The notes under the pieces were generated by a model. That model searched no databases. It saw only the letters and a list, made by a program, of their open reading frames with translations, and was not told the origin of the DNA. Below, piece after piece: positions 1 to 9,311 of a stretch of 64,000 nucleotides of DNA. Both the position numbers and the translations under genes were made by a program. This DNA is from Phallusia mammillata (Eukaryota). How positions within the stretch are numbered: position 1 is the first letter of the stretch; the number at the start of each line of letters is the position of its first letter. The stretch lies in NCBI GenBank assembly GCA_965637545.1, contig OZ281496.1, positions 12,834,001 to 12,898,000 of the forward strand, read 5' to 3'.

Positions 1-1290
1 TCTGAGGGTGCTGTAGATGCAGGTGGACCTACCAGAGAATTTTTAAGATTAGTAATGCAAGCTGTGGCAAACAGCATAATATTTGAAGGAAATGAAACAG
101 CAAAAATTCTCACAAGAAATGAAACAGGTACATAATAGTACATTAGATATACCTTAGTTCTACAGTTTGTTGATTAGCAAACAACTTTGTAAAATGTGTA
201 CTTTTGTTACGGTATATTGAAGCAAATTAAGAATGAAAAATACTACCAAATTAATAGTTGTGTTTATTTTATAGCAATTGCCAAGGACCTGTATTATGTG
301 TATGGGTGTATTATCTCCCTTTCAATCATTCATGGTGGGCCTGCTCCACGCTTTTTTTCCCAGTTATTGTATGATCAAGTTCTTGATAGATCAAGAAATT
401 TTTTGGACGCTCTTGCAACTATAAATGACCCTGTCTTGTTTTCCAAGTTAACAAAAGTAAGCGCTAATTCAATTGTATAGTATTTGTATGTTAAACTGTC
501 AACTTTGTAAGATAAATTCAACTTGTCAACAGATCAAAAATACTGATACAGTAGAGGAATTAAATGTGGCATTGTCAGATATGGATGATTTCTTGTCTAT
601 TTGTGGTTCCATTACATTTGTGAAGGACCTGTCATGCAAAAATGACATTGTTGAAAAAGCAATTAAATTTTATACAGAGGATCGCCTTACCGAGTTATTG
701 GCCAGGTATGGCTTAAAAGCAATGATTTATATTACTGAGACAGTAAGAGGTTTTTGTTTATTTCAAGGTTTAGACTTGGTCTAATGACACATAATTTGCT
801 ACATAAGGCAAAATTGGCACCAAATGGATTTGAGGATATTTTTCTGTGGCAAAACAATAAACCATTGAGTGGCATAGAAATTGTTGACTCAATTTTCATC
901 AATTTAAATCTATCAGAACCTGGAAGCAACGAAAGATGCCAGGAAAATCGGGCGGTTTCCTTCTGGAGGGATTACATACTGGATGTTGAAGGTATTCACA
1001 TTCAGCACATTAGCATACAACACATGACTTGTGTTTTGACTTTCATTTCAGATGGGGAATCCTTATGTTCAATAAAAGAAATTTTAATATTTGCAACTGG
1101 GGCAGATCAAGTGCCTCCTCTTGGTTTTTCTCCAACTCCATCCATTGAGTTCTCGAACGAGTCTATGTACCCTTTGGCAAACACTTGTGCGAACATATTG
1201 ACTGTACCCACAAGATACAGCAAGTATGAAAACTTCAAAGAAGCAATGGATTTTGCAATCCTGAATTCCCCCGGATTTGGTGTTGCTTAA
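1..1290 (+). CDS. HECT-domain E3 ubiquitin ligase (G2E3-like), 3' part; 5' end outside window
   Basis: Spliced exons about 1-127, 275-456, 533-705, 768-991 and 1052-1290 (GT-AG) join in frame. Motifs: EGAVDAGGPTREF, YG..ISLSIIHGGPAPRFF, RFRLGL, ILIFATGADQVPPLGFSPTPSIEF, catalytic YPLANTCANILTVP and terminal GFGVA*. Confidence 0.9.
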
Positions 1291-1499
1291 CTGAAATATA
1301 ACACAAATCTACCCTGATATTTTGGATCCTTTGAAATGGCTAGTTGGGTGTTCTTTTGTTTTTGATCTTTTTTAGCCAGTGCTTTTCTGGTCACTACCTG
1401 GATTTAAACCCGAAATAAATGACATCTTGCTGGCACATTTTTGTATTGTTTTCAAAACATGCAAATCAAAAAACTGTTACATTAGTTCATGCATCAAAT

Positions 1500-2853
1500 T
1501 TACACTACCAAAGCATTGTGTTGTGTCCGGATTAAATATTCCAACGTTTTATTGACTGCATTTTTATACAAAATAATTCCATCTAGATTAGAGTTTTGCT
1601 GCAATAGGTCCTGTAGCTCACTCACACATTCATGTGGTAAATGGGGAATAGCGTCTACTTCAACAGAACTTGTACCTGGGCATACAATATCCTCACTATC
1701 TATTTTACCAGTATCGTTTAAAGTTTGCAGTTGAAGTAAATGTAAGTTAAGATGAAACAACTGTTCAGGAGTGCAATTTTTTTCAGTGGAAAGACTGTGC
1801 TTGTTCCAAGCATTAACAAACTCCTGGATTCGCTTATTAATGATGTGGCAAAACACAAAATGTAAACAAAACAAATCTGTATCATTTGTTGGGTCAAGCA
1901 AATTACTTTCTTCAAGAAAGAAAAAGTCATTGTAAAATTTATTTACAACTTGTGTGTTTATATCACGGTTGAACCTTTCAATGCGCTGGTTATGGACAGA
2001 GCTTCCAGTAATAACTGCATGATAGTTCTGATGCTTTTCTAGCATGTAATTCCACACTTGCACATTTTCTCCTCCATAGTCGGATCGAACATGTAATGGT
2101 AAACCATATTTTGCTTCAGCTTCCTTAAACAATTTTAACACTACAGATGATCTGTTATTGGTTGAACAGTGGCAGAATGTAATGAGACGACTAAAGCCAT
2201 CCATAGCTGCATGTATGACAAATTTCCATCTTATGAGCTTATGTGTTCCATCTATGTGCCAAATATAATTAGGACACGGAACAGTGTAGGTCCTTCTGCT
2301 TATTGTAGTCAGCTGTCTTGCATGGATCCCCTCGCCATCAACTCGGTGAAGACTCTGACGCAATCTTTTTCTTTGGATACGTATACCCTGTGATTGAAGA
2401 TGACCCTTCATCATTGCCTCTCCAGCTGCTGGGTGGTTTTGTTTTATGTTGCGGACTACATCATCCAACTCATTATTGGTCAACGAACTGCAAAATAAAT
2501 ACCCGACCTTGAGAAAATGTACTTTTTGAACCTGTGTATACACATTGATCAGATACAGTATACTCATTTAGAACCAAAACAAAGTTCATGATATACCTGT
2601 ACTGATTAATATCCACATCGTTTTCTCTCATAACCCTTTTTAGGGTTGGTCGCGAAATTTCCAAGATTTTTGCAATTTTTGTAATTGAGACTTTAAGTTG
2701 CAAAAGTTCCAACAACCTGTCCATCGGAACTTGCTTTTTTGGCCTTCCCTTGAAGTAGAATAAAGAAAATAAAAAAATGCTCTTGCATGGATGTTACCAA
2801 ACTAACCATAATAAAACACATGCAGGTCCGCCTCTACGACGTCCACGTTCCAT
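1500..2853 (-). CDS. DDE integrase-core transposase (IS3EU-like) with N-terminal HTH
   Basis: Exons about 2853-2824 (MERGRRRGGP, probable GC donor), 2748-2597 (GRPKK..ITKIAKILEISRPTL) and 2487-1500. Catalytic motifs WHIDGTHKL, VRSDYGGEN and SVHNQRIERF are present with no stops. Confidence 0.88.
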
Positions 2854-3096
2854 ATTTCTGGTTTTGGAACCGAGATTATCCACACCGTTCGTTCATTGCA
2901 TTGCTAATGTTTAACTGTATTTACCTCTCCTAACCTAATTGATTGCAATTAAATAATATGTTACAGTTGTCAACTAACAGCAGATTTCTGACCGGTTGCG
3001 AATTAGACAAACCCCGAAACGTTGCATGTAATTTAAGTCCTTACACCCCGTTGGTTATTATGGTCCGGTCCATCACTCAGTTCGTCATGGTTCAGT

Positions 3097-3397
3097 GCTA
3101 AATCGGAATGGCATTCCCGTTCTGATTTAGCTAAATCGGAATGGCATTCCCGTTCTGATTTAGCTAAATCGGAACGGAAATTTTATTCCTCTTCTGATTT
3201 AGCTAAATCGGAATGGCATTCCCGTTCTGAAATAGCTAAAACGGAACGGAAATGTTATTCCCGTTCTGATTTAACTAAATCGAAATGAAAATGACATTCC
3301 CGTTCTGATATAGCTAAATCGGAATGGAACTGTTATTCCCGTTCTGATATAGCTAAATCGGAATGGCATTGCCCATTCTGATATAGCTAAATCAAAA
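3097..3397. repeat. Subterminal tandem array, 33-39 bp unit, about 8 copies
   Basis: Unit gctaaatcggaatggcattcccgttctgattta, with variants carrying a 6-bp insert. Confidence 0.9.
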
Positions 3398-3617
3398 TGA
3401 CGTGGTTCTTTACACATGCATATTTTTACAAAGGGCTTCATTATTTGGGCAAAAAAGGCTTTTTAGAAATGTCATTGATATTTTTACAAACGGCGCCCCA
3501 TAGCTGGCAACGAAGGCTGAGTTGGTAAAGGCTGCTGGTAGAGGGCTACTAGTCTAGCTGTTGCTAGCACGTGTTGTCATATACCTTTAAAAACACTACT
3601 TTTAACTACAGTTTAGA

Positions 3618-6785: not shown

Positions 6786-6929
6786 TTTTTTGCTACCTAA
6801 CGTACTATGCCACTTGCGCAAAGAAACACCATGTAAACACAATGCTTTAGCGCATTGAAGTACAATTCGCATGTGACGTCATAGAATGCGCATTGAAGAT
6901 ATATTTGGATTCGATCATGTAAACGGGGT

Positions 6930-9311
6930 TATTGCAATGCTAAGAGTCAAAAAATGATTGTACAATTTTTTGGGCAAAACTTTATGAAGCACAATTTTTC
7001 CAGTATATAACAAAAACTGTCGGAACTCAGTTGCTTTCCAGTGTTCTATTTCCTTTAATGTTCTTGGTTTTCTTGCAAATACAGAGGGTACAAAAGATTT
7101 GAGGTGGATCAGTTTCTCAGAAATTAAATTTATTTGTTGTACCCCTAGTCTAACATTTTTAGGGCCTCTAACCCATGTTACTAAAAGTTTTTTCATGACA
7201 CCCAAGCACACTTGGTGCATGTAATCAATAGGAAACTGTTTTACCATGTTGATAGGCAGGCCACAAAATGGAGATAAACTGTTGTGATGCTGTTCGTTTA
7301 CTTGGCTACGAAAAGACTCATCAGTTCGTTCAACATAATTACATGTTTCTTGGTATGTCATGCGACCCACCCAAGTACCCTGTTGAGCACATTTGTCACA
7401 TCCATAATACCCAGAAAAAAGTTTTGTTCCTTTAACCATTGATCGCGCAGGAGCATCACAAACCACACTGTGGATCTTGCATGCAAAAGTAATACCCTTG
7501 CAAAAAATTCCATGTGTCAAAATATTATTCAGTTCTTGTATGAAATCTTCTAAAAAGTCCAAGTTTGATGGTTTAGATCAGGGGTGGGCAAACTTTTCAG
7601 TGCAAGGGCCGCATTCAAAAGTTTATAATCTTACCGGGCCGCATAGTATTTCACCAACGACCGCCAATTGCTTATTGTTGTTTTGTTTTAAAACAACTGA
7701 TGCAAAGAATAAGGTTTGTATCATATATATACCATTTAAAGTCGCCTAATATGCTCTGATTAACAATTTCTAACTTGTGCATAAATTTAGCTGAACGGAG
7801 CTAACTGTTTATGACGTCATAAACTGTATTGTGACGATTCCAGTGCCTGTTTTTTCGCATTGTTTGCACATAATAAGCGGATAAAAAGCCTGGCACATAT
7901 GGTTACTAGACTGCTAATCTTTTTTCCAGTCCCACGAAATCTGTTTTAGCAGTTTAAAAATCAAAATATTTAGCAAAATAGATTGCGGCCGCAGGTTGTG
8001 CACCCCTGCGCAAAATTATTACATAGTATATTTTCAGCTTTATGCAAATACGTTTGTTCATGACTGCACAAACATTGGTTGAAACGCTACAATTGTAATT
8101 GTTTCAAAAAAACAAGCGTTTGTTGCAACAAAGGCTGAACCACGTATTTTGTTAATAAAGTCCGAGTGCCAACATTAAACAAAAAGTACTGCAACGACCT
8201 AACCATGATCCAAAGTGACCAAAGTTTGGGCGTCAACAGTGCAAAGTTGGCTGTTTTTGAAAACGTGAATCGCTTTTACTTTTATCGAACGAAGAAATTG
8301 TGTCAAGTGACGATTTGCATAATAACGTGGCAGAAAAAACAGGCTAAAGCACGTGAAAAGTATCTGTGTTTAGTTCCAAAGTATCGAACGGGTACAGATA
8401 CTGCATATGGCATTGGTATCGGCAAGTCGCACCCCCGGTATTTTTAAAACTCTGCGCCTGTGCTCATAGTACTATTCAGCGTTACTCGGAAACATTTGGC
8501 GGGCCGCATAAACTCCTTTGGCGGGCCGCATGCGGCCCGCGGGCCGTAGTTTGCCCACCCCTGGTTTAGATAATCCATATGTAAGACACACACAAAATAC
8601 ACATTTTAAGTTTACTATGCAACCAACTACAGGCCAGAAACAAGATTTGGAACTTTTGAACAAAGGCAAACCATCAATATTAAAAGCAAGTTCCAAGTGC
8701 TTAGGCAACATTTCTTTTTCTTCAAACACATCTAGTTGGGCAATAATCTGTTTTTGCAAGCCAAAATTGTAGTACTGCATTCCAGACTTGTTAGTAATGG
8801 AAATATTTGTTTGTGTCTGAAGAAGTGTCCGTGAACAGGATGGAACATCTTTAACCTCTATTTGTGGACCATGCTTTTCAAATAACTTTAAAAGTTGGTC
8901 AACAGCATTATGTTTAACTTGATACTCAATAACCCACTGTTTTAGGTCATCCTCAAAATTAACTGAAAAATCACTGAAACACAAGGCAAGTGTTTCACTG
9001 CTATCAATAACTTTATCAATACCTAAAGGACTATGAAGTATCTTACAAGTAGAAGTGGATGCTATGCCTTTACAGGAATGCTCAGCACACAGTTGTGAAC
9101 CAGTTAGGGCATCACATACAAAATTTCGCTGCTGGTTTGCAAACAGTTCACTAGAAATATCTTCCACATTTTTAACACAAAGCTCTTCACAGTCCGTATT
9201 TTCGTCACTTTCAGAGGACAACATTTGCAAATCAACAGTTTTGCGCCGTTTTATCTCAGCACGCCTGCGTCTCATCCATAAACGCTTGTACGTTTTCCTA
9301 CTCTCATTCAT
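6930..9311 (-). pseudogene. EnSpm/CACTA-type transposase split by insertions
   Basis: FNIDGLPLFKSSKSCFWP, VCDAPARS, GYYGCDKC, FPIDYMHQVCLGVMKKLL, HWKATEFRQFLLYTG. Removing the 7579-8563 MITE and one TSD restores the frame (LTYGLSKPSNLDFL). Confidence 0.9.
7579..8563. mobile_element. Non-autonomous hAT (Charlie/SPIN-like)
   Basis: TIRs caggggtgggcaaact / agtttgcccacccctg; perfect 8-bp TSD GTTTAGAT at 7571-7578 and 8564-8571. Confidence 0.95.

Follow-up and report, generated by a model that had tools for sequence, protein, structure and literature searches.

The window, a 64,000-nucleotide stretch of contig OZ281496.1 of the ascidian Phallusia mammillata, opens on a gene for a HECT ubiquitin ligase that lies tail-to-tail with a gene for an integrase-like transposase. 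We asked whether the two genes belong to one mobile element, whether the ligase is a recent passenger in it or a lasting component, and on what the ligase might act.

The window begins inside a young, intact IS3EU transposon

A preliminary description of the window had proposed one young two-gene IS3EU element with a spliced HECT gene, an intact transposase gene 209 bp away, a catalytic cysteine in an ANTC motif, a subterminal repeat array, and a CCATA end. All of these features held up on closer analysis. The stop codons lie at 1288-1290 (+) and 1500-1502 (-), the array was recovered, and the CCATA end closes the element at 3502. The same description had advised extending the sequence leftward, and there we found the left terminal inverted repeat (TIR), which starts 2,605 bp upstream of the window (L019:7396), with GCTGGC flanking both ends. 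Positions 1..3502 are the right 3,502 bp of a 6,107-bp IS3EU element, and the other 2,605 bp lie before the window start (G000:C3:12831396-12834000, which is L019:7396-10000). The features are as follows.

1..3502: right part of the IS3EU element (genome DNA search, TIRs, copy comparison)
1..127, + strand: HECT gene exon 7, 3' part; the preceding sequence, from exon 1 to the beginning of exon 7, lies in L019:8121-10000 (splice joints, gene model)
275..456, + strand: HECT gene exon 8; Pfam HECT E=4.6e-5, just short of the cut-off
533..705, + strand: HECT gene exon 9 (splice joints, gene model)
768..991, + strand: HECT gene exon 10 (splice joints, gene model)
1052..1290, + strand: HECT gene exon 11, with the C-lobe, the Cys674 codon at 1186-1188, Phe at -4, and the stop at 1288-1290
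1291..1499: gap of 209 bp between the two stops, with the ends of the public contigs of both genes near 1435 and 1486
1500..2487, - strand: transposase exon 3, with the integrase core, D131-D188-E222, and the stop at 1500-1502 (Pfam rva_4, splice joints)
2597..2748, - strand: transposase exon 2, with the HTH_7 helix-turn-helix (Pfam, splice joints, gene model)
2807..3068, - strand: transposase exon 1, with the ATG at 2809-2807 and a 5' UTR reaching at least to 3068 (splice joints, gene model)
2853..3109: segment outside the array, about 80% alike to an inverted segment just upstream of the HECT gene (end alignment)
3097..3399 (about): subterminal array of 33/39-nt units, with a mirrored counterpart at the left end (repeat search, end alignment)
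3478..3502, - strand: right TIR, 25 bp, identical to the left TIR (end pattern search, end alignment)
3503..3508, + strand: target site duplication (TSD) GCTGGC; the empty paralogous site, L147, has it only once
3503 to about 6930, plus L019:7228-7395: Harbinger-type host element with a Myb gene (+) and a DDE_Tnp_4 transposase (-)

IS3EU/GingerRoot elements have TA..TA termini (TAYGG..CCRTA), TIRs, and 6-bp TSDs, according to the parts of PMC10045372 and PMC12730594 available to us. A DNA search of the genome gave 16 matches, 7 of which are near-identical places of the element. All seven copies are 6,067-6,127 bp long and carry TATGG..CCATA ends, the window copy has a perfect 25-bp TIR, and each copy is flanked by its own, different 6-bp TSD. 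A single-copy HECT gene, syntenic in relatives without the transposase, had been named as evidence against a single element; the gene instead occurs in multiple copies and travels with the transposase. Because the copies differ from one another by just 4-20 substitutions, we conclude that the element spread recently. The transposase frame is open in 7/7 copies and the ligase frame in 5/7, the other two being frameshifted. The window copy interrupts a Harbinger-type element, recognized by Myb and DDE_Tnp_4 Pfam matches, 168 bp from its left end, and a paralogue of that element (L147, 98.9% identical) lacks the IS3EU insertion and contains GCTGGC once. A TIR between the two genes had been named as evidence that would speak against a single element; there is no second TIR match within the window at ≤3 mismatches and hence none between the HECT and transposase genes. 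We therefore rejected the possibility of two separate adjacent elements. Segmental duplication as the source of the copies was also rejected, since their flanks and TSDs differ. We are practically certain of the structural part of our reading: this is an IS3EU transposon of the cut-and-paste kind, young and intact, whose two genes are both spliced. Farther along the window, 6915-7577 (-) holds a 220-aa transposase-like frame with a weak Plavaka match (Pfam E 0.063).

Both genes are spliced

All 12 introns of the two genes appear spliced in public contigs. We compared 4 of the 21 listed public runs, taking contigs to be RNA from their GT..AG joints; these contigs give neither expression level nor start site. 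Such joints were present in three runs, from three studies, and the fourth run, X13, was unspliced. The HECT introns were spliced at 10/10 positions in X1, 7/10 in X15, 5/10 in X5, and none in X13, and both transposase introns were spliced in X1 and X15. At the two sites private to the window copy (2653 and L019:8519), the contigs carry the majority allele, and therefore this evidence speaks for expression of the family rather than of the window copy. One X1 contig skips HECT exons 6-7, which shifts the frame.

The models built from the splice joints give a DDE transposase of 3 exons and 380 aa and, convergent with it, a HECT ligase of 11 exons and 707 aa. Pfam places rva_4 at 1503-2564(-) (E=7e-72) and HTH_7 at 2476-2793(-). 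The transposase has an IS3/IS481-like DDE core (rva_4 and rve) with an N-terminal HTH_7 and no N-terminal HHCC motif, as in IS3EU/GingerRoot. It is 100% identical to a UniRef record listed for P. mammillata, and the spliced junction of exon 2 is also present in database protein P0008.

The ligase combines a predicted ubiquitin-like domain with a full HECT domain

From its N-terminus, the ligase consists of a short helix, an acidic SIM-like patch, a basic patch, a domain encoded by exon 3 that matches no Pfam family, a SIM-like and UIM-like pair, and a full HECT domain (Pfam E=4e-12 at 739-1287(+)). Residues 296-707 align at 40% identity, with 10 gap positions, to P0004, covering the full N-lobe and C-lobe, and P0004 itself matches Rsp5/NEDD4 over its residues 85-431; an Atlas search with P0004 returned HECT clusters alone. 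A homologue search with exon 1 by itself gave no match, a result of little weight. Both the catalytic motif ANTC674 and the C-terminus ...GFGVA-stop are present, the latter placing a Phe at -4 as the HECT -4 Phe rule has it. The element's HECT protein is very probably an active ubiquitin ligase.

The profile of the exon-3 domain matched 884 clusters, and its structure was modeled with a pLDDT of 93 from 111 sequences. Against known structures, the best match had a Z of 5.5 and an rmsd of 3.2 over 84 aligned residues (Ufm1), each match being weak, and Foldseek gave a best E of 0.034, with none at 0.001 or better. Nearly all matches listed in both structure searches are ubiquitin-like domains. 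We predict from the model that exon 3 encodes a ubiquitin-like (beta-grasp) domain. HECT does not always accompany this domain: a protein with two copies of it is common to two Octopus species (P0146, P0314, and P0315), P0145 contains 12 copies, and in Xenopus, Ranitomeya, Engystomops, and Pristimantis the domain is fused ahead of a PAICS/ADE2 paralogue (P0240, P0263, P0221, and P0245). The frog fusion is possibly a domestication of the ligase's ubiquitin-like domain.

The SIM and UIM calls rest on patterns of our own. The UIM-like pattern was found in 6/17 sequences tested (several of them partial or isoforms), and for these six it also matched 5-14 of 500 shuffled versions; Pfam UIM was not detected in the ligase. 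The SIM pattern is weak: it is absent in family 2, a sister family described below, and is often reached by shuffles in other proteins. The SIM-like and UIM-like motifs also stand in tandem ahead of the HECT domain in bichir and loach relatives. This arrangement raises the possibility of a counter-defense, in which the ligase would ubiquitinate host silencing factors of the piRNA or chromatin pathway that bear SUMO or ubiquitin marks, leading to their degradation and to continued expression of the element. SUMO takes part in the silencing of transposons, and transcription of both genes in three studies is consistent with such a role. There is also a precedent, in the portion of PMC12730594 available, in TET/JBP genes carried by fungal transposons, including IS3EU. 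However, the same portion describes TET cargo as often swapped between superfamilies, whereas the ligase tends to stay with its transposase. Together with the weakness of the SIM pattern and the matched domains on both proteins in families 3-5, which point to a direct partnership, this leaves the counter-defense as the main rival, in our view somewhat less probable than the action on the transposition complex discussed below.

The two ends of the element are mirrored

The two ends are inverted homologues over about 630-650 bp, of which about 250 bp, roughly 80% identical, lie outside the array; a DNA comparison of the ends gave 81.7% over 553 nt. The mirrored segment stops short of both start codons, by about 100 bp on the ligase side and about 45 bp on the transposase side, and the 5' UTR of the transposase falls within it. 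The segment at 2853..3109 is likely a mirrored promoter/5' UTR. We infer homologous promoters at both ends, from which the two genes would be expressed jointly.

The ligase recurs with the transposase across IS3EU families

The preliminary description had seen the ligase as the second protein of the element, and as cargo. The first part stood. The second did not, as far as recent cargo is meant: the comparisons below indicate that the ligase is a long-standing partner gene of the IS3EU lineage. A convergent HECT gene or its remnant is present in five divergent IS3EU families of P. mammillata, even where transposase identity falls to about 30%. Family 2, whose transposase is 67% identical, has the same layout, with a TIR and TSD in 7/10 loci fetched, and the model of its ligase has the five intron positions of the HECT region in common with that of the window element. 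Families 3, 4, and 5 (about 30% identity) have TACGG ends, 6-bp TSDs, and a convergent HECT gene or remnant. Pfam confirmed HECT in families 3 and 4. In these two families both proteins start with matching zinc ribbons (8/18 and 7/19 identical), and matching ribbons are visible in family 5 too. The ribbons of families 3 and 4 may serve to dock the two proteins on each other, or they may be left over from the duplication behind the mirrored ends. Compared with family 2, pS was saturated at 0.80, whereas the HECT domain had a dN of 0.42 and the transposase one of 0.35; both the ligase and the transposase are under purifying selection.

The pairing extends beyond this genome. In a metagenome search, we kept the best 80 of the 560 relatives encoded among 601 pattern matches. 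Among these 80 loci, 32 had a convergent HECT match; among those with at least 1.5 kb of downstream flank, 27/42 did. After clustering at 90%, convergent HECT was present in 18/29 transposase clusters with enough flank and absent in 11/29. Of 14 frames picked for a Pfam check, 9 were confirmed as HECT. As a control, 160 kb of flank from the P. mammillata genome contained no convergent HECT match. Two of the best 80 loci (L087:132-3054 and L092:1116-8296) have HECT upstream of the transposase, in divergent orientation. A search of viral contigs for relatives found none.

We then compared ligase and transposase distances over 23 dereplicated pairs, drawn from 32 with both genes scored, with loci lacking a C-lobe match left out. 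The distances were correlated (rho 0.40, 4 of 5,000 permutations), also when families 3-5 were omitted (rho 0.36, 20 of 5,000 permutations); the HECT segment compared is about 80 aa long, and kinship of the hosts could add to this correlation. The window element's ligase groups with metagenome ligase L067, not with those of families 3-5 from the same genome. The two gene trees are partly congruent, with mismatches such as L080, and because the congruence is only partial, some swapping of ligases is likely.

These comparisons also bear on two other accounts of the ligase. If it were a chance capture, a host gene riding along without benefit like Pack-type cargo, its breakage in 2/7 copies would be expected, and GingerRoot elements do capture host gene fragments, according to the part of PMC6839031 consulted. 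However, the ligase is a whole 11-exon gene under purifying selection, and the same layout recurs in the five families and the 18 metagenome clusters. The 8 further loci of its HECT type that were fetched are derivatives of families 4-5 or members of a multi-copy group. We consider chance capture highly improbable. Recent capture of a host gene was likewise rejected, on the purifying selection, the recurrence of the pair with correlated distances, and the derivative or multi-copy nature of the further loci. Alternatively, the HECT protein might be a scaffold or sensor in which catalysis is secondary, a second-protein partner like the Harbinger Myb protein. In one lineage (L095/L097) Arg replaces the catalytic Cys, and the ubiquitin-like domain of Octopus and the frog PAICS fusions occurs without HECT. 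But the Cys is kept in 22/23 dereplicated elements, and over its full length the domain can be aligned, with no large gaps, to relatives matching solved HECT domains. A scaffold or sensor thus seems improbable.

The further loci came from a HECT family search, from which 12 additional stretches were fetched, 8 of the window element's HECT type and 4 that did not match our profile. Four of the 8 are derivatives of families 4-5, and the other 4 form a 99% identical group. No single-copy parent of the ligase was found among these 8 fetched loci. The group (L151, L152, L157, and L158) is related to family 3, and three of its members have TACGGTGG end-like motifs; no transposase was detected in the stretches read, and it is perhaps a non-autonomous family that retained the ligase. 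Three other observations concern this genome. In a family-3 copy (L039/L049, G000:C5 near 3343001) the 34-bp subterminal array has grown to more than 4 kb and is satellite-like. A family-5 copy (L054/L043/L055, G000:C5 near 17339000) contains a 6.3-kb inverted duplication, 98% identical. An intronless 1,030-aa open frame at L046 (G000:C3:21475672-21478761) has a canonical HECT domain (E 7e-93) and is possibly a retrocopy.

The transposition complex as a possible target of the ligase

Our tentative preference, held with somewhat less than even confidence, is that the ligase acts mainly on the element's own transposition complex. The mirrored ends would supply homologous promoters, so that both genes would be expressed together, and the basic patch would take the ligase to the nucleus. 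There, the predicted ubiquitin-like domain and the SIM/UIM-like motifs may dock it on DNA-bound or modified transposase; in the sister families, a zinc ribbon on the ligase matching one on the transposase may serve instead. Ubiquitin transfer through Cys674 would then strip the transposase from the finished insertion, and host repair would fill the 6-bp gaps. Alternatively, transfer through Cys674 may cap transposase levels. A parallel is known from phage Mu, where ClpX acts on the transposase after strand transfer.

We favor the transposition complex because the partner is widespread, tends to stay with the transposase, and shares N-terminal domains with it in the sister families, and also because fungal IS3EU elements carry a kinase in the partner slot. 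Several findings count against it. The window element itself lacks matching N-terminal domains (the transposase has the HTH, the ligase a short helix), 11/29 clusters are without convergent HECT, and one of 23 elements has Arg for Cys. In addition, the gene trees agree only in part, 2/7 ligases are frameshifted and no transposase is broken, and the 4-copy, 99% identical group keeps its HECT gene with no transposase detected in the stretches read.

If a ubiquitin ligase is the standing second gene of these transposons, it would represent a type of accessory protein that we have not seen described, and many genes annotated as "G2E3-like" would have to be reinterpreted. A still broader reading, which we regard as rather unlikely, is a two-enzyme superfamily: IS3EU transposition would be controlled by the element's own ubiquitin ligase, most "G2E3-like" genes of aquatic animals would be transposon genes, and parts of the ligase would have been domesticated by hosts (the HECT domain of vertebrate G2E3 and the PAICS-fused ubiquitin-like domain of four frog genera). 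The structure and function of IS3EU are described as largely unexplored in the part of PMC11934779 available. This locus contributes splice evidence for every intron, a predicted ubiquitin-like domain, mirrored ends, the zinc ribbons of the sister families, and a within-genome census. The family is a good test case, being compact, recently mobile, spliced, and intact in 5/7 copies, and P. mammillata is used for embryo work.

Comparison with known systems

The nearest named proteins to the ligase are "G2/M phase-specific E3 ligase-like" (G2E3-like) proteins of fish, hemichordates, and beetles, with 38-40% identity over the HECT domain. Those of Betta and Misgurnus have the same layout of ubiquitin-like domain and HECT. 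Unlike the element's ligase, they are annotated as host genes. Erpetoichthys has a cluster of 8 members at 90% identity on five contigs, and Misgurnus has 17 members across several loci; such a distribution over many loci would fit transposon copies. Human G2E3 has a RING domain, and the G2E3 subfamily is said to have arisen only after the chordate/echinoderm split (available parts of PMC13061254 and PMC2837046, respectively). Such a late origin would allow for its HECT domain having come from an element of this kind. No Pfam RING match was found in the scanned parts of the ligase, nor can a finger motif be seen in its 707-aa model. We rejected a host G2E3 orthologue, since the gene is multi-copy inside TIRs, the N-terminal half of its product is a predicted beta-grasp, and no PHD/RING fingers are visible.

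The termini, TSD, and integrase-like DDE core of the element are like those of IS3EU/GingerRoot elements in the parts consulted of Kojima and Bao (2023, PMC10045372) and Cerbin et al. (2019, PMC6839031). By eye, its core motifs match the WHID..HKLIRW group of IS3EU-1_CVi, IS3EU-1_SK, IS3EU-3_CGi, and IS3EU-4_DR in the portion of the PMC10045372 supplement at hand. The difference is the partner: those parts of PMC10045372 and PMC6839031 name no HECT partner for IS3EU. Our literature search for HECT with IS3EU or GingerRoot returned no paper linking them, and Repbase or supplements beyond those consulted could hold such a note. Names such as IS3EU-1_CGi_2p indicate that a second protein is annotated in Repbase, where it may be described as HECT. 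Fungal IS3EU elements carry an alpha-kinase opposite the transposase, and fungal TET+ IS3EU elements resemble ours in their TAYGG..CCRTA ends, 6-bp TSD, and opposite-strand protein-modifying enzyme (Kojima 2025, PMC12730594, in the part available). In contrast to these, the present element has no TET or kinase gene, and its partner is a HECT ligase with a predicted ubiquitin-like domain.
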